From: Candidatus Komeilibacteria bacterium CG_4_10_14_0_2_um_filter_37_10
GTDB lineage: Bacteria; Patescibacteriota; Patescibacteriia; UBA1558
Direction of reading: 5' to 3'
DNA length: 20,261 nt
NCBI GenBank assembly: GCA_002793075.1
Contig: PFPO01000049.1
Coordinates: 1 to 20,261 of the forward strand
The stretch's first letter is position 1. Each line of letters opens with the position of its first letter. Of the stretch, positions 2,997 to 19,177 are shown piece by piece. The position numbers were made by a program, and so were the translations under genes. The notes under the pieces were generated by a model that made no database searches, was not told the DNA's origin, and saw only the letters and a program-made list of their open reading frames with translations.

Positions 2997-3605
2997 CTAC
3001 TTTTTTCGAAAAACTCTGCTGATATGCCAAGCAATACCAATAATAATCAAAACTATTATCCCGACGTTGAATTTATCCCACCAGGGCCCGAGTTGATTCC
3101 AATTATTTCCCAAAACCACTCCTAAAAAAACCAAAATATAGCACCAAATTAATGAGCCAATAAATCCAGAGATAGTAAACTTCCAAAAATGACCACGGGA
3201 AATACCCACAACAATAGATATATAAGTACGCACAACTGGTAACATCCGTGAGACAAAATAAATTGCATTACCGTGTTTTTCTAATAAATGATCTACCAAC
3301 TCAATATCACGATTAGATATTAATAGCCACTTACCATGCTTCATGAGAAATGGTCGACCTAATATATAGCCAAGATAATAAGAAATGATACCGCCAATAA
3401 CACAGCCAAAGGCACCAACTATCGCGGCTAGATGATAGTTCATTTGCCCGTGACTAGCTAAGAAACCAGCATAGGGCAATATTACTTCCGATGGAATGGG
3501 AATATTAGCGGACTCTAAAGTCATCAAAAACAACACGCCGAAATAATGCCAACTATTAATAATATCGGTAACAATGCTTGTAACAAAATGAATGATTTCC
3601 GTCAT
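2997..3605 (-). CDS. DedA/TVP38/SNARE-associated family membrane protein
   Basis: 202-aa polytopic membrane ORF with DedA signatures: ESANIPIPSEVILPYAGFL (E..P.P.E...G) and RMLPVVRTYISIVVG (R..P..R....G). Confidence 0.8.
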   Translation of the reverse strand: MTEIIHFVTSIVTDIINSWHYFGVLFLMTLESANIPIPSEVILPYAGFLASHGQMNYHLAAIVGAFGCVIGGIISYYLGYILGRPFLMKHGKWLLISNRDIELVDHLLEKHGNAIYFVSRMLPVVRTYISIVVGISRGHFWKFTISGFIGSLIWCYILVFLGVVLGNNWNQLGPWWDKFNVGIIVLIIIGIAWHISRVFRKK

Positions 3606-3716: not shown

Positions 3717-4815
3717 ACATATTGGAATCATTAAGAGATCCAAATGTATGCAAATAGGGATTAAGTATTATAATTGCTCTGGATTTGGTAGATTATATGA
3801 ATATGCTCATAAGCAAATTCATATGATTACTAAAGAAGCTAAACAACGACTTAAAATTATCCTTTTCTGGCAGAACTGTGGTCTTAGGGCAACTATATCT
3901 GCCTTTGGGGCCAAACAGTCCATTCTCTACAAATGGCGTAAAGTATATAGAGATTCTGGTTGTCAGTTAGCAAGCCTTAATCCTGGCAGTCAGGTCAGAA
4001 AAACAACCAACAAACGAGAAGTTAACCTAGATATTCTCGGCGAGATGAAACGATTAAGATTAGCAGTATGTCCTAATATGGGTAAGGCTAAGATCAAGAA
4101 GTTTCTCGACCCATTCTGTTGTTTAAATAACCTACCCATCTATTCAGAGTCCAAGATAGGTAGAATAATTAAGGAAAAGAAGATTTATCATCATCGACAG
4201 AGGGTCTATCATAATGGAACAATTAAAATCATTAAGAAACAAAAGAAACTAAGAAAACCAAAGGAATTAGTGGTTAATAGCCCAGGTGATTTAATAGAGA
4301 TAGATACTGTTGTTAGGTTTGTCTCTGGTCTAAAAAGATATATTATTACAGCAGTGGATACCTTTGGTCGCCCAGCCTTTGCCTATACTTACAATCGAGC
4401 AGGTGGTGCCAACGCTCGAGACTTCTTCAAAAAGCTAGAAGAAGTGATGCCCTTTAAGATTAAATCAGTGCAAACAGACAATGGTAGTGAGTTCCATCTT
4501 TATTTTAGAAAGTATTTGCAGGAACGAAATATTACTCATTACTATAACTATCCTGACCGATCATATCGTAACGGACACATAGAAAGGTTTAACCGAACAA
4601 TTCAAGAAGAGTTTGTTGATCAGAGTGAATTTCTACTGATCGACCTAAATGTATTTAACTCAAGATTAATAGACTATTTACTATGGTACAATACTAAAAG
4701 ACCACATTGGAGTCTTAATCTAGAATCACCTGTGGATTATTTAATTAAAAATAACTTTATTTCCAATATGTGCTGGACTAATACAGGTTTATCTTTTAAC
4801 TACCTTAAGATATAA
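3717..4815 (+). mobile_element. putative IS element (IS481-like, single DDE transposase ORF); ends uncertain
   Basis: It contains a single HTH + rve-integrase-core transposase ORF. An 11-bp inverted match, ACATATTGGAA at 3717-3727 and its reverse complement TTCCAATATGT at 4761-4771, is a candidate terminal inverted repeat. No clear target-site duplication was seen. Confidence 0.4.
3748..4815 (+). CDS. DDE transposase (rve / retroviral-integrase-core type, IS481-family-like); true start may be the internal Met at 3823
   Basis: 355-aa ORF. The N-terminal basic HTH-like region reads KQRLKIILFWQNCGLRATISAFGAKQSILYKWRKVY. The catalytic core carries D (IEIDTV), D (QTDNGSEF) and E (NGHIERFNRTIQEEF), the DD(35)E pattern with the conserved TDNGSEF and ERFNRT blocks. 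Confidence 0.8.
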   Translation: MQIGIKYYNCSGFGRLYEYAHKQIHMITKEAKQRLKIILFWQNCGLRATISAFGAKQSILYKWRKVYRDSGCQLASLNPGSQVRKTTNKREVNLDILGEMKRLRLAVCPNMGKAKIKKFLDPFCCLNNLPIYSESKIGRIIKEKKIYHHRQRVYHNGTIKIIKKQKKLRKPKELVVNSPGDLIEIDTVVRFVSGLKRYIITAVDTFGRPAFAYTYNRAGGANARDFFKKLEEVMPFKIKSVQTDNGSEFHLYFRKYLQERNITHYYNYPDRSYRNGHIERFNRTIQEEFVDQSEFLLIDLNVFNSRLIDYLLWYNTKRPHWSLNLESPVDYLIKNNFISNMCWTNTGLSFNYLKI

Positions 4816-4839
4816 TATAGTAGTTATTAATTATATCTC

Positions 4840-6035
4840 ATGAACAAAAAGAACCAATTAAAAAAAATAGTAATCTTTATTCTACTGTCTTGTGCACTTA
4901 AATTCTTTTTTACCGATCAAATCATCGAGCAAGAGTACAATTCTTTGGTCAAGCTCGGGGCCATCATTATAGTATTTGTTATTGGTATTGGTTTTGTCTT
5001 CCAAAATACCACACATATTATTGAAGAGACGACTGATGTCTTAAAAGACCGAACAAAGTTGGCTGGGGGCTTTCTCCAAGCCTTTGGCACTGCCTTTCCT
5101 GATATGGTACTGGGTATTGTCGCGGCTTTCCTAAGTTTACAGCTTCGTGATCATGATTATTTACGCGCCATTAACCTGGCTATTATCGCTGCCTCCACTA
5201 CTTTTGGCTCTAATATTTATAATATAATTCATGCCACTTGGTGTGTTTATCGTCAAAATGTTGCCGATAAAAAAATCAGATCATTGCTATGTTTCCCGGC
5301 TTGCCGTTTGGTGGCAATTTAACACCCGTCAAGAAACATTCTGTGAAACCAAGCCCCCGAGAACTTGGTCGGGCCATTGATATTTTGACGGTCCTTACTG
5401 TTCTGACAGCAGCTGTGGCCCTGAGCATGGTACTTTTTGGTAGTGTTAGTAATAGACCAGAGATGATCCAGGGCGACCTGTATCAATTGATTAGACCGAT
5501 TGGTATTATTCTCTTTATCTTATGTATCGCCATCCTCTATATTTATCGTCGCGGCGAAAAAGCCGAATCACCAGTAAAAGAAATAGCCGAAGAAGAAAGA
5601 TATTACGCCACCCGATCTAACTTTCGCATCTGGCTGGACCTGGGTTTGGCTGGTATAGCTATTCTCTTTACTGCTGAAAGTATGGTTACCTCAATGGAAG
5701 TATTTTCTGAAATTACTGGCCTTCCTTTTGTCTTAACTGGTATCGCCGCCGGTCTCATTGGCTGTTTTGGCGAAATGATGGTAGTGCACAATTTCACGGT
5801 TCATCCCAAGGGAAGAATTGGTGATGCTATCATGGGTGTGGCCATGGATAATATTGTCACCACGTTAGGCGCTGCTATCGTCGCTATTATGGGTGGTATA
5901 TTTTTGGGAGGTAACTCTTTAATTTTAATCTTTATTATTATTTTGGCAGCTAATACTATTTTGATTCAGCAAATATCTAAGTTCAAAAACAACTTACTAG
6001 CTACCAAGGTAGCTAGTAAAAAAATTGCTGCTTAG
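4840..6035 (+). pseudogene. CaCA-like (Na+/Ca2+ exchanger superfamily-like) polytopic membrane transporter split into two overlapping ORFs (4840-5322 frame 1; 5289-6035 frame 3) by a frameshift at an A7 homopolymer
   Basis: Both ORFs are highly hydrophobic and each carries one alpha-repeat-like motif (GTAFPDMVLGIVAAF; GLIGCFGEMMVV). Frame 3 opens exactly at the TAA embedded in the A7 run at 5269-5275, so a +1 A there would fuse both parts into one ~400-aa protein. This could be a real pseudogene, a phase-variable tract or a homopolymer sequencing error. Confidence 0.45.
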
Positions 6036-6686: not shown

Positions 6687-7985
6687 ATGTCTTTAATCAA
6701 TGAAATAATTAATTTACCAGCTCCCCTCTTAAGTCATTGGGGGTACTTAGTTATTCTCTTTGCCGCTCTACTGGAAACAGCACCACTCTTTGGCCTGCTG
6801 ATACCCGGACAGTTAATAGTCATTCTGGGTGGATTATTAGTGAAATTAAAAATTTTAGAAATTGGTGATGTGATCTTTATTTCCGCATTCGGCGCTATTG
6901 CGGGCGACTATTTTGGCTATCTAATAGGCAAAAAATATGGTTACGCCTTTATTACTAAATTTGGTAAATATTTTTTCCTCAAAGAAGAGCGGTTTAAAAA
7001 AATTCAGCCCTTAGTTAATCAAAATCTTGGTCAAGCTTTAATTATTGGCCGTTTCAATTCTCTGACTAGAGCTTTTGCTCCTTTTGTGGCCGGTGCTAGT
7101 AAAATACCCTTAATTAAATTTCTAATCTACAATATCGTTGGTGGACTTAGTTGGTCAATCGTTTTCGTAATGATCGGCTATCTATTTGGTGCAAGTTATG
7201 AAGTCCTGGCACCGCATCTTGGTCGCTATATATTTTTGGCCACACTTATCAGTGCTGTATTGATCTATCTTTATAAATATATCAACCGTAAAAAAAGTAT
7301 TTTTTATCGCTATCACCTATACGCCCTACTGACTAGCATTGGTTCTCTTTATCTTTTTGCAAAATTGATCGAGGATGTCATTGATCAAGAATTAGTTACT
7401 CATTGGGACGTTTGGATTAATCAAAACGTTATTCATCTTTGGCAACCGACATTAAATAAAATAATGATTTTCATTACTAACATTAGTAGTCCCACCGTTA
7501 TGATCATTCTCGCCGCAGGCTTACTGCTATCCCTACTGTATAGAAAAAGGATTTACTACTCGTTACTTTTACTCTTTGGTATGGCTGGTGGTCTAGTACT
7601 AGAAATACTCACCAAGCTTATCGTTCAAAGGGCTAGACCGATTAATGGTTTATTGACAATTTCTTCCTACAGCTTTCCTAGTGGCCACGCTACCATGGCT
7701 CTGCTTTTCTTTTCTTTGGTAATTTATATTTTTCATAACGATTTTAACAATAAAATAATAAAAAACTTATTCATTGGTGTTAATGTTTTGTTAATCTTAC
7801 TAATTGGTTTTAGTAGAATTTATCTTAATGTCCACTGGCTTAGTGATGTTTTGGCGGGATTAGCTCTGGGGCTCTTTTGGCTGACTGTTTTAATATTAAT
7901 ATTCCGAGTCCTGATGTCACTAGCCAACACAACGCTGGAAACAATAAAGCATCTCCTTAAAAAAGCTAACCATTTGCCATCCTGA
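6687..7985 (+). CDS. DedA-family domain fused to a PAP2 (type-2 phosphatidic-acid/undecaprenyl-pyrophosphate phosphatase) domain
   Basis: 432-aa membrane ORF. The N-terminal half carries DedA motifs: ETAPLFGLLIPGQLIVILGG and GRFNSLTRAFAPFVAG. The C-terminal half carries the three PAP2 catalytic motifs: KLIVQRARP (KxxxxxxRP), SFPSGHAT (PSGH) and SRIYLNVHWLSDV (SRxxxxxHxxxD). Confidence 0.8.
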   Translation: MSLINEIINLPAPLLSHWGYLVILFAALLETAPLFGLLIPGQLIVILGGLLVKLKILEIGDVIFISAFGAIAGDYFGYLIGKKYGYAFITKFGKYFFLKEERFKKIQPLVNQNLGQALIIGRFNSLTRAFAPFVAGASKIPLIKFLIYNIVGGLSWSIVFVMIGYLFGASYEVLAPHLGRYIFLATLISAVLIYLYKYINRKKSIFYRYHLYALLTSIGSLYLFAKLIEDVIDQELVTHWDVWINQNVIHLWQPTLNKIMIFITNISSPTVMIILAAGLLLSLLYRKRIYYSLLLLFGMAGGLVLEILTKLIVQRARPINGLLTISSYSFPSGHATMALLFFSLVIYIFHNDFNNKIIKNLFIGVNVLLILLIGFSRIYLNVHWLSDVLAGLALGLFWLTVLILIFRVLMSLANTTLETIKHLLKKANHLPS

Positions 7986-8008: not shown

Positions 8009-8193
8009 ACACGTTAATGAGCTGGGAGTCATGTCGCCCAGCCAGTGTCTGGAAGAAGGTTCGTCTGACGGACTGTGTAAAGCCAGCGGTTGGCACCGTT
8101 ATAGCTGAAAATTAAGCGCCTATCCATGTCTTTGGCTAGGAATTAAGGTGGTACCGCCTCACTTGAGGTCCTTATAAATAAGGACTTTTTTTA
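8009..8193 (+). promoter_or_regulatory. T-box riboswitch-like leader RNA upstream of valS
   Basis: This ~185-nt untranslated leader is notably GC-richer than its surroundings. It contains aattaaggtggtaccgcc (8141-8158), matching the conserved T-box sequence AAUUAGGGUGGNACCGCG (the UGGU would pair with the tRNA NCCA end). A terminator hairpin plus U-run (8168-8193) follows immediately, then the valS start at 8242. T-box control of valS is common. Confidence 0.6.
8168..8193 (+). terminator. intrinsic terminator of the T-box leader (attenuator)
   Basis: Stem gtcctta (8168-8174) / taaggac (8179-8185), loop taaa, followed by tttttttt (8186-8193). Confidence 0.6.
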
Positions 8194-8241: not shown

Positions 8242-11200
8242 ATGGAAATGCCAAAAAATTATTCAGCTGGTGACTACGAACAATCGATCTATCAACAATG
8301 GGAAGAGTCCGGTTTTTTCAATCCCGATAATCTAACTTGGGCCAAGAAACCCTTCTCGATTGTCTTGCCGCCGCCAAATGCTACCGGCATACTACACCTG
8401 GGACACGCTTCGATGTTAGCCTACCAAGATGTACTAATTCGTTATCATCGCTTACTGGGCGAGAAAACATTGTGGCTACCAGGAACTGATCACGCCGCTA
8501 TTGCCACCCAAAATGTGGTAGAGAAAAAAATTGCTCAGGAAGAAAATCTAACCAAGGAACAGCTGAGACGTAACGCTTTCTTAGCACGAGTTCGTAACTA
8601 CGTAGCCAATTCGCAAAACACTATTCATAAACAGTTGCGAGCCATGGGATCTTCTTTAGATTGGAGTCGTGAACGCTATACGCTAGACGATGGTTTATCG
8701 CGGGTGGTAACTACTGCCTTTAAAAAAATGTACGACGATGGTTTAATCTGTCGTGGTTATCGTATTGTGAATTGGTGCCCGCGCTGCCAATCAACACTTG
8801 CTGACGATGAAGTGGAGTATAAGATACAAAAAACACACTTATATTACTTACAATACGGCCCGGTGGTAATAGCTACAACTCGTCCAGAAACCAAAATCGG
8901 TGATACGGGACTGGCGGTTAATCCGCACGATCAGCGGTACCAGCACCTAATCGGCCAAACATTAAAATTTTCTCTTGGTGATATAGAGCTATCAGTCAAA
9001 TGCTTTGCCGATGAATCGGTTGATCCGGAATTTGGTACCGGTGCTATAGGTGTCACGCCAGCACATAGTACTATTGACTATGACTGGGCTCAGAAATACG
9101 ATTTAGCGATTGTTAAAATTATTGACGAGCGCGGTAATATGACTAAAGAAGCTGGGGCGTATGCTGATCTATTAGTTACTGAGGCTCGCAAAAAATTCCT
9201 TCTAGCAATTGAACAAGCCGGACAGTTAATAAAAATTGAAAATTATGAAAATAATTTGTCTGTTTGTTATCGTTGTGGCACCGCGATTGAGCCACTGCCT
9301 TCCGAACAATGGTTTGTGGATGTCAATAAAAAAATACCAAAACTCAAAAAATCTTTAAAAGAACTATCGTTAGCAGTGGTGGAGAAAGGGTTGGCTGATG
9401 ACCCTAATAAAAAAATTGTGATTATACCGGAAAATTTTACCAAAGTTTATCTGCATTGGATGACAAACCTACACGACTGGTGTATTTCTCGTCAAATCTG
9501 GTGGGGTCACCGTATCCCCATTTGGTATTGTTTACAATGTGGCAAAATTTCTGCAGATAATGAGCCTCGGAGCAAGTGGTTTCTTGTTCGTCATGGCGAA
9601 ACCGATATGAACAAAGAGAATAGACTGTATTACCAAGATAACGATATTGATATGCCTTTAAATGAACAAGGAATAATGCAAGCGGAGGAATGTGCACAAG
9701 AACTAAAAAAACAAAAAATTGACCTTATTATTACCTCTCATTACTTACGCGCTCAACAAACAGCACAAGTTATTGCCCGGGTAACAGGAGCAAAAATTAT
9801 TCTTGAGGAAAACTTTCGTGAACGTAATACTGGCAATGCTCAGGGCATGACTTCTGCGGAAGTAAAAACAAAATTTCCCAACTTCTATGAATATGCTGAT
9901 AAATCAGCCAATCAGGAAAATTATCAAGAAATGGAAGAAAGAATGTGGGAATCTTTTTCTCAACATTATGCCCAACACAAAGATAAAAACGTGGTTATTG
10001 TCGGTCATGGCGGTGCCTTTCGTTCGCTGATACGAAAAATAAAAAACATTGACCCTGTAGATATCAGAACAAAAATTAACCTGCTATCCAATTCTCAACC
10101 TTTTCAGTTAGACATTCTTCAGCCGTGTTCTGGGTGTCATAGTCATTTTTTTGAACAAGATCCAGATACGCTAGATACTTGGTTTTCCTCAGCTCTTTGG
10201 AGTTTTTCTACTTTAATGAACGGTGAATATCATGGTAGTTGGCAAGAGTGGCTAAAAAATAGTCCTGATTTGCAAAAATATCATCCTCTTAATGTTATGG
10301 AAACAGGCTATGATATTTTATTCTTTTGGGTAGCCCGTATGATTCTGATGACTACTTATCTGATTAATGACATACCATTTCAAACAGTTTATTTACATGG
10401 ATTAATTCGCGACAAACAAGGTCGGAAGATGAGTAAGTCGTTGGGTAACGGCGTAGATCCTATTGTCATGATTGAAAAATATGGCGCTGACGCCTTACGT
10501 TTAGCTATATTAGTAGGCGCTACGCCAGGCAATGACACTAGGCTTTACGATGAAAAAATTGAAGGCTATCGTAATTTTATCAATAAGCTATGGAATATTT
10601 CCCGCTACATTTTTAACAATACAAAATCAATAAATATTATTAAGCAACAACCAAAACCAAAAACTGCGGCCGATCATTGGATTATTAATGAATTAAATTT
10701 GTTAATCACCGCAGTTAGCGACGATCTTAATAGTTATCGCTTTTCTTTAGCTATTGAAAAGCTCTACGAATTTACCTGGTCAAAATTTGCTGATTGGTAT
10801 TTAGAAATTAGTAAAATAGAAAAAAACAAAGAAGATATCTTGCTTTATATTTTACAAACTCTGCTAAAATTATGGCATCCATTCGCGCCTTTTGTTACTG
10901 AAGTATTGTGGCAAAAAATGAGTTCCGAATTAATTATGGTTGAAAAATGGCCAGTTGTTTCGGCACTAACAAAAATTGATCAGAGCTTTCAACAACTACA
11001 AGAAATAATCAATAAAATTCGATCAGCTAAAGCAGAAAATAAAATTGACCAAGTCAAAATTATTGACCTATACTTAGCAGAGCAATTAGACACTACTTCT
11101 TTGCAAATTATCAGCCAATTAGGCAGAGTTAATATTGTGCAACAGGCACTAGATAATTGGTTAACACTACCACTAAGTAATAATCTAATCAAAATTGCCA

Positions 11201-11382
11201 TTGATCGTGATGAGGCTGAACAAATCCACCGATCTAACATCAATCAACTACAAAACAACATTAGTTCGCAACGGGCAAAGCTAGCGAATGAACAATTTAT
11301 TAATAACGCACCATTGGAAATCATCGAGGAAGAAAGAAAAAAATTGACTGAAGCAGAAAAAAAACTAGCTCAGATTTCTTAA
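8242..11382 (+). CDS. valS: valyl-tRNA synthetase with an inserted histidine-phosphatase (PGAM-family) domain
   Basis: 1046-aa ORF with class-I HIGH (PPPNATGILHLGHA) and KMSKS (KMSKSLGN) motifs. It also carries the conserved WCISRQIWWGHRIP and DTLDTWFSS blocks and a C-terminal coiled-coil, all typical of ValRS. About 190 aa inserted between the zinc-knuckle Cys pairs (CLQCG ... CSGCH) carry the histidine-phosphatase motifs LVRHGETDMN, SHYLRAQQTA, ERNTGNAQG and VIVGHGGAFRSL. Confidence 0.95.
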   Translation: MEMPKNYSAGDYEQSIYQQWEESGFFNPDNLTWAKKPFSIVLPPPNATGILHLGHASMLAYQDVLIRYHRLLGEKTLWLPGTDHAAIATQNVVEKKIAQEENLTKEQLRRNAFLARVRNYVANSQNTIHKQLRAMGSSLDWSRERYTLDDGLSRVVTTAFKKMYDDGLICRGYRIVNWCPRCQSTLADDEVEYKIQKTHLYYLQYGPVVIATTRPETKIGDTGLAVNPHDQRYQHLIGQTLKFSLGDIELSVKCFADESVDPEFGTGAIGVTPAHSTIDYDWAQKYDLAIVKIIDERGNMTKEAGAYADLLVTEARKKFLLAIEQAGQLIKIENYENNLSVCYRCGTAIEPLPSEQWFVDVNKKIPKLKKSLKELSLAVVEKGLADDPNKKIVIIPENFTKVYLHWMTNLHDWCISRQIWWGHRIPIWYCLQCGKISADNEPRSKWFLVRHGETDMNKENRLYYQDNDIDMPLNEQGIMQAEECAQELKKQKIDLIITSHYLRAQQTAQVIARVTGAKIILEENFRERNTGNAQGMTSAEVKTKFPNFYEYADKSANQENYQEMEERMWESFSQHYAQHKDKNVVIVGHGGAFRSLIRKIKNIDPVDIRTKINLLSNSQPFQLDILQPCSGCHSHFFEQDPDTLDTWFSSALWSFSTLMNGEYHGSWQEWLKNSPDLQKYHPLNVMETGYDILFFWVARMILMTTYLINDIPFQTVYLHGLIRDKQGRKMSKSLGNGVDPIVMIEKYGADALRLAILVGATPGNDTRLYDEKIEGYRNFINKLWNISRYIFNNTKSINIIKQQPKPKTAADHWIINELNLLITAVSDDLNSYRFSLAIEKLYEFTWSKFADWYLEISKIEKNKEDILLYILQTLLKLWHPFAPFVTEVLWQKMSSELIMVEKWPVVSALTKIDQSFQQLQEIINKIRSAKAENKIDQVKIIDLYLAEQLDTTSLQIISQLGRVNIVQQALDNWLTLPLSNNLIKIAIDRDEAEQIHRSNINQLQNNISSQRAKLANEQFINNAPLEIIEEERKKLTEAEKKLAQIS

Positions 11383-13778: not shown

Positions 13779-16700
13779 TTATTTTAACGGTGTAAAAAAA
13801 CCTTGATCCACAAAATGAAATTGATCAAGTACCGTATTCGTCGCTGGTAGAATGCCAGCAATAATTACTCTCTGACCAAAAAAATTATCAATCGTATCGC
13901 CTGGCTTGCTAATTAATTTGGCATCAATCATCATCTGCGCTTCCAACGATCCGATATAAACAGGCCAATACGAATTACCACCCAACTGAACCTGACTAAA
14001 ACTGGCAATGGATGATTTTAATTGATCTGGTATATTAGTATTTGTTAATAAGTAAAAATTCTTAATAATTTCTTTTTCAGCAATTGATCTATTTAATGCC
14101 GTAGTGGTCAACTTGTTCCAGGTATTACTATTAACCAGATGATAATTATCAATAGCCGTGCCTGTTGTTTCCATAATACCAACTACTTTAACCCTGGCTA
14201 ATCCAAAAAAATTATCTAAAGAATCGCCAGCGCCTTGAATTAGTTTTTCTTTTTTCATCATCGCAGCTTCGCTAGCGCCAATGATCATTTCATCATCACC
14301 CAATGTCAGTGTACCTTCCGCTACTTTAAGCGAGTCAGGTAATTTCTCAACAGCCAGAAATAGCTTCGGATTGCCCTCGGCAAAGTTCATTTTTGCTTGT
14401 CCCTTAGCAATTAAATTATTCAACGACGATGCTGTTTCCCAAGAAACTGCGAGCGCCATACCTTTATTCTCCATGCCAGAACTAAACCGAGCAAATTCCA
14501 AGAATATACCCGTAAAAAGCAAAACCATAACCAATGGCGCGATCAGTGATACGTAGTTACGTTTACCCGGACGGAATAACTTCAACAACAGAGAATTAGA
14601 TACCACTGAGATAGATGATAGGGCCATGGTAAGTCCAGCAAGTTCTGGTTTGAGAATTAATCCAAAAGCTACAAACACTCGAGCTGCTACTGGTATGCCA
14701 ATAACATTATAAAACAAAGCAAAGAACATATTTTGTTTTATCTTGCTCATGGTTTCCCGAGACAACTCAAACGCCGTCACTACGTCATTAAGATCGTCTT
14801 TCATGATCACTACACCGCCAGTTTCCATCGCTACATCAGTACCAGATCCCATAGCAATACCCAAATCGGCTTGCGCTAAAGCCGGCGCATCATTAATGCC
14901 ATCGCCAACCATAGCAACTTTTTTACCAGTTGCTTGTATCTTCTTTACTTCCTTAGCCTTATCTTCTGGTAAAACCTCCGCCAAGACATTAGTAATACCC
15001 ACCTGAGTAGCAATCGCCTGCGCAGTTCTTTCGTTGTCGCCGGTGATCATATAAACTTCAATTCCTAATTTTTGTAACTTAGCCACAGCTTCCCGCGAGG
15101 TATTTTTAACTGTATCGGCAACAGCTACCGCACCAATAATACTTTCACGACTAGCGATAATCATTGCTGTTTTTCCTTGCTCTTCTAGTCTCTCTAATTT
15201 ACGATTGATTTTATCCAACGATAATCCCAAAACGCTAACCATCAAACGCCGATTACCAATATAGTATTTAACCCCCCTGATATCACCTTCTACGCCATGT
15301 CCGGGAATAGCTTTAAAATTTTCTACTTCCTCTAGATCAATATTTTCTTCCTTGGCATAAGCACAAATAGCCTCAGCTAATGGATGCTCGGATAATTTTT
15401 CTAAACTAGCAGCGACGCTGACAATTTCATCTTGATCTGATTGACCAAAATTAAGTACCTCGGTTACCTCTGGTTTGCCTTTGGTGAGCGTACCGGTTTT
15501 ATCAAAGACAACAGCCTTTATCTTACACGCTGCCTCTAGTGGCTCACCACCCTTAATCAAAATACCATATTCCGCTCCCTTGCCAGTGCCCACCATTAAG
15601 GATGTTGGCGTCGCCAAACCAAGAGCACAAGGACAAGCAATCACGATAACAGCCGTGAAGGCCATTAAGGCAAAAGCTAAACTAGCGCCAAGAAAAAAGT
15701 ACCAAACAATAAAAGTAACAATAGCAACTACGATAACGGTTGGTACAAACCAAGCTGAAATCTTATCAGCGAAGCCTTGAATTGGCGCTTTGGATCCCTG
15801 GGCCTCTTCAATTAGACGAATGATTTGTGCTAATGATGTCTCGCTACCTACACGCGTTGCTGTAAATTCAAAACTACCAACCTTATTAACGGTACCAGCA
15901 GCAACCATGTCACCAATATTTTTTTCTACTGGCAATGACTCACCAGTCAACATTGATTCGTCTACTGCTGATGAGCCCTTAACTATTTTACCATCCACTG
16001 GAATTTTTTCTCCTGGCCGAACAACTACAATATCACCATGAACAACCTCATCAATAAGGATATCTGAAACAATACCATTTCGTATCACGCGCGCGGTCTT
16101 TGCCTGTAAGCCCATTAATTTTTTTATGGCTTCAGAAGTTCTACCTTTAGTGCGAATCTCTAGCCACTTACCCAAAACAACGAAGGTGATCAAGAAAGCC
16201 GCCGTCTCAAAATAAAGTTCGGGAATTTTACCGCCCAATCCAATCAATGATCCGGTCTGCACAACATACAAAATATAATTAACGGTACTGTAAAAAAATG
16301 CCGTGGAAGTACCAATGGCAATCAAGGAATCCATATTAAACGTTCTCATCTTCAGTGCTGACCACAGACCGCGATAAAATCCAGCGCCAATAATAAACTG
16401 CACGGGAATAGTAAATAAGAAGGAAATAATGCCAAAATAAGGCGCCAATAATGTAGCGCCTGGTAACCACTGAAAGAAATCTAGCAACATAAAATAAAGC
16501 ATTGGTAAACTAAAAGCCAAACTCCACCAAAACTTCTTTTGATAACCACGTATTTCCGTTTCCCGTTTCCGACTATCATGCTCAGTATCTTTAACATCCA
16601 CTAATTCCGCGCTATAACCAGCTTTTTTGATGGTTTGCACCAAGTCACTGACCTTGGTAGTTGCTTCATTGAAAACTACCAATGCTTTTTCGGCAGCAAA

Positions 16701-17126
16701 ATTAACATTAGCTTGCTGGACGCTAGGCATTTTTTTTAAAGCTCGCTCTATTAATCCTGCGCAAGAGGAGCAATGCATACCAGAGATAGATAAATTAACC
16801 CGTCCATTAGCTTCAGTGGTCGTCTCTAATTTTATTTTCAACGGCTCGCTTGCAGCAGTTTCTTTAACTACTACATCCTCTGACGATGTTGACTGATCAA
16901 CACCAGTCGTTTCATTAATTACAGTGGCTTCATAACCAGCTTTTTTTATAGCTGCGATTACTTGACTATTATTAACTAAGGATTCGTCAATACCTAGACT
17001 ACCACTACCTTCTTGGAAGTTAATTTTAATATTACCTATGCTGGGCAATTCTAAAAGTTCAGCCGTAATGATCTGCTCGCAGGACGAGCAGTGCATGCCA
17101 CCAATTTTTAACTGTAACGTCTTCAT
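13779..17126 (-). CDS. copA: copper-translocating P1B-type ATPase (CopA-like) with two N-terminal HMA domains and an unusual ~270-aa C-terminal extension after an extra TM helix
   Basis: 1115-aa ORF with two MxCxxC HMA domains (GMHCSSCEQ; GMHCSSCAG). The TM helix carries CPC ([12 protein letters not shown]), and the phosphorylation motif DKTGTLT, the hinge GDGINDAP and the TGES-type actuator (LTGESLP) are present. After the normal final helix ([18 protein letters not shown]) comes an extra hydrophobic helix ([24 protein letters not shown]). A soluble C-terminal region then carries two copies of a GD(S/T)(L/I)DNFFG...(Y/F)H(L/F)V(N/D) repeat. Confidence 0.9.
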
Positions 17127-17130
17127 ATAT

Positions 17131-17337
17131 TTATGCTTTAATTACTAAATAATTAGTTCCCCCTAAAATTTGTTTTATTTCTAGCAGATCAATTTCACGC
17201 TCCGCCGTTACGGTTGTTTGGCCACTGGCTAAATAAATCTTTATTTCCTGGACTCCCATTAACTTATTTAATTTAAGCGTGATGAGCTTAACGCAAGCCT
17301 CGCAGGTCATTCCTTGAATAATAAATTTATTAATCAT
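17131..17337 (-). CDS. copZ: CopZ-like heavy-metal-associated (HMA) copper chaperone
   Basis: 68-aa ORF with GMTCEACV (MxCxxC) in a ferredoxin-like HMA fold. It ends 4 bp upstream of copA. Confidence 0.8.
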
Positions 17338-17353
17338 ATGTTTATTTAGTTAC

Positions 17354-19177
17354 TTATTCAACGTTGATTACACCTCGGGGAACGCCCATGGCACAAGTTA
17401 TGGAATATTGACCTTTCTTGGTGGGCGTAAAATCAAGTTCCAAGATGTTACCACTCTGTAAATACTCGGGATTATTATATAAGCCCGGTATCATAATCGT
17501 GCTCATACACCCCTGACCGTCATCCTTAACGTCAATCAAGAATTTAACTGGCATACCAGCTGTGACAGAAAAATTGTTTGGCTGGATATCCTTATTTAAA
17601 GTATAAACGGCTTTGATGATCTGTGCTGGTGTATTAGCTACTGCGTTATTATTCACACTGCCATAATCCGGCTTGGTACTATTGGCGTTAATCGGTGGGC
17701 GAGCTCCACCGCCGCAACCACCACAACCGCCACCACCAAGACCGCAGGACGATCCTTTGGTGGCTGCTTTATTATTGGTAGATGAATTGCTCGCTCCAGA
17801 AATAGGGCCGTCTGTACTTACTACATTAAATGCCCCCCGATACATACCCATACTACAAGAGAAAGGAATTTTACCTTCTTCTTGAGGAGTAAATTCAAAA
17901 ATATTTTCACCGGCAACTAAATTTTCTCTAATACCCAACTTCGGCGCGCTGATACTAGCAGCACAGGAATATGGTTCCGTAACATTAATGATCCACTTAA
18001 CTGGCATATCTTTTCTGATAGTAAAATTGTTTGGTGAATAGCCTGTGTAGCTCTCAGTCATTTTGACTATCTGTACACCATCTTGGATTATCACATTGGG
18101 ATCTTGTGAATTTGTTACTGCGGAATTTTTGTCACCCCCCCAACTAATGCCGACTAAAGCCAGGCCATTAGATATATTGAATAGCGCAAACAAAATTACT
18201 ACTACACCAGCCACCTTAAAAAATTTCCGCGCCGCAGATCCTTTCACTGCCGAAGTTATACCACCGATAGAAAGAAGTCCTGGTGCGGTACCTATGGCAA
18301 ATAATCCCATAATCATCGCCCCCTGGACAAAACTACCGGTGGAGATGGCATATATTTGCATCGCTTGAGTAAATCCACAAGGCAAGAAAAAAGTGAGCGC
18401 GCCAACCATCAGGGAATTCCGATGATTGTATTCGGCGTGATGCCGATCAGTACCAAATAATTTAGCGATACCCTTGGGTAACGTCAATTTCCAAGAATTA
18501 AATTTCGGAAAAATTTCTATCAGTTGCAGACCGACAAATAACATTAAGGCACTGACAATAAAAGTTAAAAAACTTGTTATCGTTGTCGAGAGCTGAAAAA
18601 TTGATCCCAGGGCTCCCAGTAAACCACCGAGAATAACATAACCGCTAATGCGGCCTAAATTAAAAAATAAATGCGGCCTAAATTTTTGACTAGTTGTAGC
18701 TTCGGGATGCTTTTCCACGTGCTTAGCGGAAAGACCAAGTACTAAACCGCCAATCAAAGCCATACAGGAAGAGAAACCAGCTACCAATCCAATCAGCACT
18801 ACCGTACCAAGACTTGAAGGACTACCGCTGGTAGCAAAACCAATGTTAGTTAAGCCAAATAATTTTAAAAAACCATAAGTAATAATAACAATTACTACTG
18901 CGGTAAATAATTCTTTATAATCCTTGGGGTTACGACTAAAAAAACGTGGTTTTTCAGCAACGCCAACTTGATAGCCAGCCGCAACTACTGCTTGTTCTAA
19001 ATCCTGTGCTGCTGGCTTTTGCTGGGTGTAGTATATTTCTGCCACGCCTTTATGATGCGTTACCTCGCTTTTAGTAACGTGTTTGATATGCGAAAATTGT
19101 TCCTCCAACAAAAGTTCACAGGAACGACAATGCATGCCCTTAATTGGTAAGATTATTTTTTGTAATTTATGAGTCAT
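17354..19177 (-). CDS. multidomain membrane protein: N-terminal HMA + DsbD/CcdA-like (DsbD_2-type) 7-TM domain + cupredoxin-like domain + Gly/Cys-rich linker + second cupredoxin-like domain
   Basis: 607-aa ORF with an N-terminal HMA (GMHCRSCE). About 7 predicted TM helices carry conserved Cys in GFSSCMALIGG and FFLPCGFTQ, resembling the two-Cys CcdA/DsbD_2 transmembrane family. Two ~95-aa beta-rich modules with shared motifs (PNNF(T/S)(I/V)..(D/G)MPVK(W/F)(I/L)I(N/D)V ... F(E/D)FTP...G..(P/S)(F/I)(S/T)C(S/A)MG..RG..NV) look cupredoxin-like. Between them lies SSCGLGGGGCGGCGGGARPP. Confidence 0.8.
   Translation of the reverse strand: MTHKLQKIILPIKGMHCRSCELLLEEQFSHIKHVTKSEVTHHKGVAEIYYTQQKPAAQDLEQAVVAAGYQVGVAEKPRFFSRNPKDYKELFTAVVIVIITYGFLKLFGLTNIGFATSGSPSSLGTVVLIGLVAGFSSCMALIGGLVLGLSAKHVEKHPEATTSQKFRPHLFFNLGRISGYVILGGLLGALGSIFQLSTTITSFLTFIVSALMLFVGLQLIEIFPKFNSWKLTLPKGIAKLFGTDRHHAEYNHRNSLMVGALTFFLPCGFTQAMQIYAISTGSFVQGAMIMGLFAIGTAPGLLSIGGITSAVKGSAARKFFKVAGVVVILFALFNISNGLALVGISWGGDKNSAVTNSQDPNVIIQDGVQIVKMTESYTGYSPNNFTIRKDMPVKWIINVTEPYSCAASISAPKLGIRENLVAGENIFEFTPQEEGKIPFSCSMGMYRGAFNVVSTDGPISGASNSSTNNKAATKGSSCGLGGGGCGGCGGGARPPINANSTKPDYGSVNNNAVANTPAQIIKAVYTLNKDIQPNNFSVTAGMPVKFLIDVKDDGQGCMSTIMIPGLYNNPEYLQSGNILELDFTPTKKGQYSITCAMGVPRGVINVE

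Follow-up and report, generated by a model that had tools for sequence, protein, structure and literature searches.

Few known enzymes are as highly conserved as the aminoacyl-tRNA synthetases, and we know of no synthetase catalytic core that hosts a second, unrelated hydrolytic enzyme. The closest precedents are the isoleucyl-tRNA synthetases (IleRS) that carry an N-acetyltransferase (GNAT), the RNase H/acid phosphatase fusions and MutT1, none of which places a phosphatase within the catalytic core of a synthetase. This work describes such an arrangement in valS, the valyl-tRNA synthetase (ValRS) gene, of Candidatus Komeilibacteria bacterium CG_4_10_14_0_2_um_filter_37_10, a member of the Patescibacteria, or candidate phyla radiation (CPR), represented by a metagenome-assembled genome (MAG). 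The gene lies on contig PFPO01000049.1, of which positions 1 to 20,261 were analysed (the window); coordinates refer to the forward (+) strand unless otherwise indicated. Its exact product had previously been deposited, from a Candidatus Komeilibacteria MAG, under the name 'hypothetical protein', and the public annotation of the sequences that bear the same insert goes no further than 'class I tRNA ligase family protein' or 'valyl-tRNA synthetase'. Hence the sequences themselves are public, while no paper was found to describe the combination of nested, exchangeable phosphatase modules in the ValRS and IleRS of Patescibacteria. The full-text literature searched, outside which most subscription journals lie, returned no prior description of a phosphatase nested in a synthetase, in agreement with the statement, in a preliminary description made from the DNA sequence alone, that no described ValRS with such an insertion was known to its author.

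The nested histidine phosphatase of ValRS

The window gene is the housekeeping valS of a Komeilibacteria genome, with its synthetase signatures intact. A single open reading frame (8242..11382, stop codon included) encodes a protein of 1046 residues that exceeds the cut-offs of both NCBIfam ValRS models, NF004349 (924.7 bits against 704) and TIGR00422 (865.9 bits against 612.1), each of which matches in two stretches, with the first ending at residue 444 and the second restarting past residue 620. Pfam returns tRNA-synt_1 in two halves with His_Phos_1 between them, as well as Anticodon_1, at 113 bits, and Val_tRNA-synt_C, whose 32.2 bits exceed its cut-off of 25.9. Among 68 aligned CPR ValRS, some with inserts and others lacking them, the HIGH signature of the class I catalytic site, here HLGH (residues 52-55, 8395..8406; H52, G54 and H55), the KMSKS loop (residues 729-733, 10426..10440), the editing block of connective peptide 1 (CP1; T212, R214, E216 and T217) and the editing aspartate D279 are invariant, while the DTLDTWFSS block at which the second Rossmann half restarts (residues 642-650, 10165..10191) is invariant or nearly so from D642 to S650. 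An AlphaFold2 (AF2) model of the full protein has a mean pLDDT of 92.1 and a pTM of 0.85, with no segment below 50, and Foldseek matches it to the Thermus ValRS structure 1gax_A with an E value of 3.9e-64 and a TM-score of 0.84 per target length.

When the protein is aligned to this Thermus ValRS (1GAX), residues 1-445 pair with 1-429 and residues 628-1038 with 437-847, and the break between them defines an extra segment of approximately residues 434-628 (9541..10125). It occupies the tip of the zinc knuckle hairpin of connective peptide 3 (CP3), between the first cysteine pair, CLQC (C430 and C433, residues 430-433, 9529..9540), which aligns to YCEDC of Thermus ValRS, and the second, CSGC (C629 and C632, residues 629-632, 10126..10137), which aligns to SCEACG. 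The two pairs are approximately 17 residues apart in Thermus ValRS and 195 in the window ValRS, with 7-27 residues at the same position in the insert-less ValRS of other CPR bacteria. CP3 is a variable element of the class Ia synthetases, differing in topology and binding zinc in some enzymes and not in others (PMC7191050).

The extra segment matches Pfam His_Phos_1 (PF00300) over residues 447-609 (E value 1.6e-41); the score is 142.5 bits, the cut-off being 21.7, and the match ends at position 167 of the 194 in the profile. The domain as a whole (residues 445-626, 9574..10119), a complete histidine phosphatase of the PhoE/PspA type, has the alpha/beta fold of the branch 1 histidine phosphatases and contains the motifs RHGET (residues 450-454, from nucleotide 9589), LRAQQTA (502-508), RERNTG (526-531) and VGHGG (587-591). 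The full catalytic set of R450, H451, N457, R503, E527 and H589 is kept. R450 and H451, the predicted phospho-acceptor, form the start of the RHG motif (9589..9594); R503, the second phosphate-binding arginine, lies in S-x-x-x-R-A-x-x-T-A (9748..9750); E527, the predicted proton donor, lies in R-E-R-x-x-G (9820..9822); and H589, the second catalytic histidine, lies in VGHGG (10006..10008). The nucleophilic histidine is present in all 47 aligned cassettes, as judged by eye, and it, the second arginine, the glutamate and the second histidine are invariant in a 29-row alignment. The cassettes that share these residues are only 19-46% identical to that of the window, except for P0022 at 71%. The first arginine of RHG is missing in just two cassettes, P0090 and P0117, which have VHG and keep the other catalytic residues, and which may be altered-specificity or weakened enzymes. 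An 18-nucleotide direct repeat (83% identical; 9581-9598 and 9995-10012) corresponds to the two catalytic histidine motifs, (L)VRHG(E) and (I)VGHG(G), and is probably a convergence of coding sequence rather than a feature of a mobile element.

Every curated subfamily model scored below its cut-off, namely CobC (99.9 against 162.9), dPGM_arch (89.7 against 225), PspA (70.9 against 350), GpmB (66.6 against 261) and SixA (41.5 against 74.5), and the domain was not identified as CobC, dPGM, PspA, GpmB or SixA. As no named subfamily's cut-off was reached, it was classed as a PhoE-like member of the superfamily. It has the full cap region of the small-molecule enzymes, and is much nearer to PhoE than to SixA or PGAM5. 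The preliminary description was correct that a complete histidine phosphatase domain is inserted in frame within ValRS, as judged from the reading frame, the His_Phos_1 match and the split synthetase profiles: all the motifs it quoted, including the cysteine pairs and DTLDTWFSS, were found in their places, the insertion it put between the knuckle cysteines at 9570-10130 corresponds to the extra segment, the catalytic residues it considered intact are those conserved across cassettes, and the profile comparison it proposed returned the His_Phos_1 score given above. This agreement is far beyond chance.

Distribution, exchange and genomic context of the cassettes

A His_Phos domain at exactly the same ValRS site was found in 47 of the 120 best homologues, meaning the survey of relatives suggested in the preliminary description revealed a family and not a singleton. 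These 47 proteins are 899-1117 residues long, 45-53% identical overall to the window ValRS, and encoded on contigs of up to 953 kb from NCBI, JGI, ENA and Logan; those with names belong to the Komeili-, Moran- or Parcubacteria, or the 'Patescibacteria group'. In a separate set of ValRS loci drawn from GTDB species genomes, capped in size and comprising 593 loci, all ten long matches contained a His_Phos domain, eight being labelled as Patescibacteria or other candidate-phyla MAGs, one as 'bacterium' and one as 'uncultured Gammaproteobacteria', and every non-CPR ValRS had the knuckle of approximately 190 bp alone. The contig with the gammaproteobacterial label, L020 (CAZNIO010000018.1), carries a His_Phos-bearing ValRS and is probably a mis-binned or mislabelled CPR contig.

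Within this family, the phosphatase has a history distinct from that of the synthetase around it. In a neighbour-joining tree of ValRS bodies, insert-bearing and insert-less proteins are interleaved, and among 1081 pairs the identity of the bodies correlates only weakly with that of the inserts (Spearman 0.25). The clearest case of presence and absence is that of P0018, at locus L001, which has both a His_Phos and an ASCH insert, and P0078, at locus L003, which has no insert: the bodies are 94% / 93% identical, the loci are syntenic (tsaD-tsaE-valS-T2SSE) with approximately 85% DNA identity, and the valS genes differ in layout solely by two clean indels, of 531 bp and 318 bp, that preserve the frame. 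This synteny and the near-identity of the bodies mean the genes are orthologues polymorphic for cassettes, rather than paralogues. The 318-bp indel is the ASCH insert of P0018 (L001:9935-10253), which marks a second insertion site in CPR ValRS, between WFSS...STLGWP and FHPTxVMETGYD, that is also occupied by ASCH in P0060 (residues 479-578).

Replacement of one cassette by another is equally apparent. The proteins P0002, P0003, P0004 and P0005 have bodies that are 79-86% identical and cassettes that are 21-34% identical, representing three cassette types. Conversely, the window protein (P0001) and P0022, at locus L094, are 50% identical in the body and 68% identical in the cassette on the full alignment, or 71% by BLASTP over the domain, while P0001 compared with P0002 and P0005 is 56-65% identical in the body and 22-28% in the cassette. 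A sliding window along P0001 and P0022 found 60-80% identity inside residues 421-640 and 22-70% elsewhere, with the reverse for P0002 and P0005, thereby delimiting a discordant tract of knuckle and phosphatase (approximately residues 421-640, 9502..10161). At the DNA level, the proportions of non-synonymous (pN) and synonymous (pS) differences between the window and L094 are 0.16 and 0.60 in the cassette, with a dN/dS of approximately 0.15, compared to 0.33-0.35 and 0.75-0.82 (saturated) in the flanking body. The lower pS and the dN/dS indicate that, in this pair, the cassette is younger than its host gene, and they show the phosphatase to be under purifying selection. The nearest relatives of the window protein by body are without any knuckle cysteines, and the window cassette and its knuckle were apparently acquired together from a distantly related valS by recombination. 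These comparisons of bodies and inserts show the module to be an accessory cassette, with different cassette lineages replacing one another at one site, for which the simplest reading is allelic exchange by recombination via the conserved flanks WGHRIPVWY and QDxDTLDTWFSS.

No Hint domain or endonuclease was found, and no terminal direct or inverted repeats bound the insert. A transposon-like element was rejected on the lack of bounding repeats, the only 18-nucleotide repeat being that of the catalytic histidine motifs, and on the unremarkable GC content of the insert. An intein or intron was rejected as there is no Hint or intein match in Pfam, no splice residues are present, and the segment is in frame and confidently folded; the junctions, ...CLQCG|KISAD...DILQP|CSGCH... 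in the window and ...VWY|KKSD...LDK|KSEEIYVG at L001, are without the residues an intein requires. A phage origin was likewise rejected, as tblastn against phage genomes reached at most 34% identity, mostly to unannotated contigs; PHROG 12933, a phage family, consists of His_Phos proteins with no assigned function. No significant match for the insert was found in the defence database PADLOC-DB, where the sole match, AbiI at an E value of 0.0053, is noise.

The cassettes extend beyond ValRS. A profile made from 29 of them had 4,811 matches below 1e-30 among 1.84 billion representative proteins. In the best 150 representatives, all proteins matching a ValRS or IleRS body (30, plus two cluster members) carry one to four His_Phos domains, and all 16 of the Pfam-scanned proteins longer than 890 residues are class Ia synthetases. 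The 32 synthetase hosts comprise 18 ValRS, with one, two or four copies, and 14 IleRS, called by their DUF5915 C-terminus, with two copies in 13 and one in P0237. Their break points on the Pfam profile lie mostly in CP3, at positions 257-274 (262 for the window), with others near 198, 285 and 319. The multi-copy hosts include the ValRS P0139, P0277, P0288 and P0194, of which the partial P0139 has four copies, and the IleRS P0142-P0150, P0169 and P0191. P0288 additionally contains an insert of approximately 300 residues with a weak match to LPD13, a polyvalent-protein domain (E value 1e-4).

Some hosts combine the phosphatase with further modules. An ASCH-like module of approximately 130-150 residues precedes the phosphatase at CP3 in P0256 (approximately residues 448-590) and P0267 (approximately 455-580), and occurs alone in P0110; it scores an E value of 0.79 against Pfam ASCH, and 4.9e-8 against phrog_19935, an 'RNA-binding protein'. 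The IleRS P0237 (1395 residues) has His_Phos at CP3 and, past its WFESG block, a P-loop kinase-like domain (approximately residues 730-905) that scores above the cut-offs of AAA_18 (32.8 bits), AAA_33 (27.7 bits) and Zeta_toxin (25.6 bits), with weak matches in the PDB to APS kinase, shikimate kinase and Pnkp1. Hence this single synthetase bears a predicted pair of kinase and phosphatase domains.

The nearest kin of IleRS cassettes are other IleRS cassettes, and those of ValRS cassettes are other ValRS cassettes; recent transfer between the two hosts was rejected on cross-host identities of at most 41%. The ValRS cassette types are approximately 40% identical to free proteins and 22-28% identical to each other, and being nearer to free proteins than to one another suggests repeated independent capture at one site. 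Stand-alone versions have the layout M..YCxxCG - His_Phos - PCxxCG..LYE in P0200 (L092:5001-5708) and P0217 (L093:574-1218), and therefore consist of the whole module of knuckle and phosphatase, with ValRS-like flanking residues, as a separate gene. Only 3 bp separate the end of P0200 from the start of a valS which itself contains a nested cassette, at a locus syntenic with that of P0022, where the extra gene is absent. Among the other free relatives, the His_Phos gene P0132, 33% identical to the window insert, overlaps the end of a Clp1 P-loop gene of the polynucleotide kinase type (PF16575; L005:4922-6630 and L006:4751-6471), and the two could be a kinase-phosphatase operon. P0241 (579 residues), a fusion of QueC, of queuosine precursor biosynthesis, with a C-terminal His_Phos, is among the nearest free kin of some nested cassettes, and P0249 is a His_Phos-GDPD fusion.

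In the window itself, valS is preceded by a T-box-like leader (8015..8176), as expected of a working valS. A search of 401 nucleotides matched the full Rfam model RF00230 (positions 1-219) with 50 bits and an E value of 3.6e-10, below the gathering score of 93, and the default scan at gathering thresholds gave no T-box match at the leader. Its stem I is very short, with 8 nucleotides in place of 74 model positions, and the loop AGUCAUGUCG holds GUC, a valine codon; the T-box sequence AGGUGGUACCGC is followed by a terminator-like hairpin and a U-run. The leader and its GUC lend indirect support to the predicted charging of tRNA(Val). No operon clues were found near valS, its neighbours being unrelated: a protein that joins a VTT (DedA-like) domain to a PAP2 lipid phosphatase directly upstream (6687-7985), and a DUF6938 gene downstream on the opposite strand. 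Farther upstream are a second, stand-alone VTT protein (2997-3605, - strand) and a 355-residue open reading frame with integrase-core rve and rve_3 domains (3748-4815), probably an insertion sequence transposase, in a region of locally low GC content (0.30 at 4501-5000). A copper/heavy-metal cluster (13779-19177, - strand) contains a P-type ATPase with HMA domains (1115 residues) beside a DsbD_2-cupredoxin-HMA membrane protein (607 residues).

Candidate functions and their rivals

From the chemistry of the superfamily, we infer phosphomonoesterase activity for the nested domain, in which hydrolysis would proceed via phospho-His451, with R450, R503 and H589 holding the phosphate and E527 acting as the acid/base. 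It is quite possible, if far from assured, that its substrate is linked to the synthetase, being either a nucleotide or the phosphorylated acceptor end of a tRNA, as the preliminary description also suggested. The tethering of the domain beside the catalytic core makes a nucleotide-type ligand of the synthetase the substrate judged likeliest. The preferred candidate would be the 2'/3'-phosphorylated or pyrophosphorylated acceptor end of a tRNA, which the phosphatase may heal ahead of charging; the alternative candidate would be a free nucleotide. A link to the synthetase is favoured by the nested hosts seen all being ValRS or IleRS, by the recurrent capture at one site, by the RNA-related nature of the co-nested modules, by the stand-alone cassette that is co-operonic with valS, and by the free relative that overlaps a Clp1-type polynucleotide kinase gene. 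The existence of toxins that pyrophosphorylate the 3' end of tRNAs specifically (PMC11559606; bioRxiv 10.1101/2021.04.30.441581) was also counted in its support. So too was the fusion of QueC to His_Phos, for the link to RNA.

Several observations weigh against this reading. We know of no histidine phosphatase that acts on RNA ends, and a literature search combining RNA repair, Clp1 and phosphoglycerate mutase found none. The closest structures to the nested domain are all metabolite phosphatases, the cassette is dispensable in orthologues that are 94% identical, and the tandem copies, of which there are two to four, are not easily reconciled with a requirement for exact placement. The cassettes are not basic, with a median pI of 6.4, although such charge is uninformative on RNA binding. 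The gene contexts of the free relatives are mixed, with Clp1_P, a nearby LigT, a tRNA methyltransferase and a pseudouridine synthase seen once each, and the profile that identified the hosts was made from ValRS inserts, which biases its ranking toward synthetases. A more elaborate version of the synthetase-linked reading is improbable: that the nested cassettes, comprising His_Phos with or without the ASCH-like module and the P-loop kinase of the polynucleotide kinase clan, may be a device for on-enzyme tRNA repair or for countering toxins. The phosphatase would strip the acceptor end of the 2'/3'-phosphate or pyrophosphate that ribotoxins or toxSAS-type enzymes had left there, and the same synthetase would recharge the tRNA, with cassettes traded by recombination under conflict-driven selection, and the stand-alone copies next to valS acting as donors or trans-acting versions.

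The main rival is that the domain is an ordinary metabolic phosphatase of the PhoE, PspA or GpmB type, hitch-hiking in a permissive CP3 loop of an essential and well-expressed gene, independent of ValRS function, and gaining co-expression and protection from loss. This is somewhat unlikely, yet it accommodates many of the same observations: the structure and zinc binding of CP3 vary between class Ia enzymes (PMC7191050), the cassette is dispensable in close orthologues, unrelated modules are found in the same loops, stand-alone versions exist, and tandem copies are common among free and nested phosphatases alike. Against it, the nested hosts seen are all ValRS or IleRS, and the suggested repeated capture at one site is difficult to account for unless the combination is selected; nor does any curated metabolic subfamily model reach its cut-off.

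A protein phosphatase that guards the synthetase, by stripping ValRS (perhaps near the KMSKS loop) or a partner of an inhibitory phosphate set by HipA-like toxin kinases, is decidedly improbable. HipA-family kinases phosphorylate GltX, TrpS and LysS, and the patchy, exchangeable distribution of the cassettes is typical of conflict-driven modules, but we know of no kinase toxin of ValRS or IleRS, the insert has no defence-family match in PADLOC, and the full small-molecule cap region and greater proximity to PhoE than to SixA or PGAM5 fit poorly with a protein substrate. There is a similarly slim chance that the insertion is largely selfish or neutral, its chemistry being irrelevant to the host, and that it is kept, like a non-splicing intein, because imprecise deletion is lethal, while spreading by transformation and homologous recombination via its conserved flanks. 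The polymorphism for presence and absence, the replacement of cassettes, the mosaic tract, the tandem copies, and the location between the highly conserved WGHRIPVWY and QDxDTLDTWFSS blocks are all consistent with such an element. Nevertheless, even highly divergent cassettes share invariant catalytic residues, and dN/dS is approximately 0.15 between the window cassette and that of L094; there is no endonuclease, Hint domain or terminal repeat; and the site is not unique, given the break points near 198, 257-274, 285 and 319. Finally, an assembly chimera or a non-functional valS paralogue would be conceivable in a window that comes from a MAG, but is extremely improbable. The chimera was rejected on the recurrence of the architecture in dozens of independent assemblies and sources, and on the syntenic valS loci of relatives with and without cassettes, at which the insert-bearing gene is found; moreover, the gene has a clean reading frame, a confident AF2 model, a full set of conserved catalytic motifs and a T-box-like leader.

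A whole lineage of ultra-small bacteria repeatedly nests an apparently active phosphatase, at times joined by RNA-binding or kinase-like modules, in the variable loops of its ValRS and IleRS, and exchanges these cassettes like alleles. If the phosphatase does act on tRNA ends or on ligands of the synthetase, then it would add a new layer to the quality control of translation or to resistance against toxins. Otherwise, it is a striking example of essential genes that shelter accessory enzymes, as 'safe harbours', in reduced genomes.

Comparison with known systems

One analogy is with the RNA end-healing enzymes, such as the Pnkp of T4 or Clostridium and the Clp1 kinases, in the idea that a phosphatase, sometimes accompanied by a P-loop kinase, restores RNA ends; a comparable pairing is seen in the IleRS P0237 and with the Clp1_P-linked free relative. 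However, the end-healing phosphatases that are known belong to the HAD or metallophosphoesterase enzymes and not to the histidine phosphatases, and the window protein is without a kinase domain and has a phosphatase of another superfamily, meaning the resemblance to Pnkp is one of analogy only. Inteins are similar in their distribution alone, as in-frame, domain-sized elements that lie between conserved blocks of an essential gene, occur patchily and move between alleles, whereas the window insert is without Hint, splicing residues or a homing endonuclease, and is predicted to remain in the mature protein.

Existing fusions share individual features with the window protein. The IleRS with an N-acetyltransferase (NF040702, ileS_w_GNAT) is also a class Ia synthetase with an extra catalytic domain, and is partially matched by the window protein via its synthetase part, but the extra domain is a GNAT instead of a histidine phosphatase, and the score of 163.8 against a cut-off of 1999 shows the window protein is no member of this family. 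The mycobacterial RNase H/acid phosphatase (NF005567, Rv2228c type) and MutT1, which joins Nudix and His_Phos (9CXX, 3FJY), both place His_Phos beside an enzyme of nucleic acids or nucleotides, but are end-to-end fusions in unrelated hosts, and the window protein scores far below the family cut-offs. The phosphatase itself resembles the broad-specificity PhoE (YhfR) of Geobacillus stearothermophilus (1H2E/1EBB), PspA (4IJ5) and GpgP (6S2Q), which are free-standing proteins of approximately 205-215 residues with a C-terminal extension, whereas the window chain re-enters the ValRS knuckle past the first C-terminal strand. The synthetase has the organisation of Thermus thermophilus ValRS (1GAX/1IVS; phmmer E value 1.3e-170), with the Rossmann fold, CP1 editing domain, CP2, four-cysteine CP3 knuckle, anticodon-binding domain and C-terminal coiled coil all shared, and differs in the knuckle loop, which has approximately 17 residues in the Thermus enzyme, and in the window ValRS spans approximately 195 residues that form a second enzyme.

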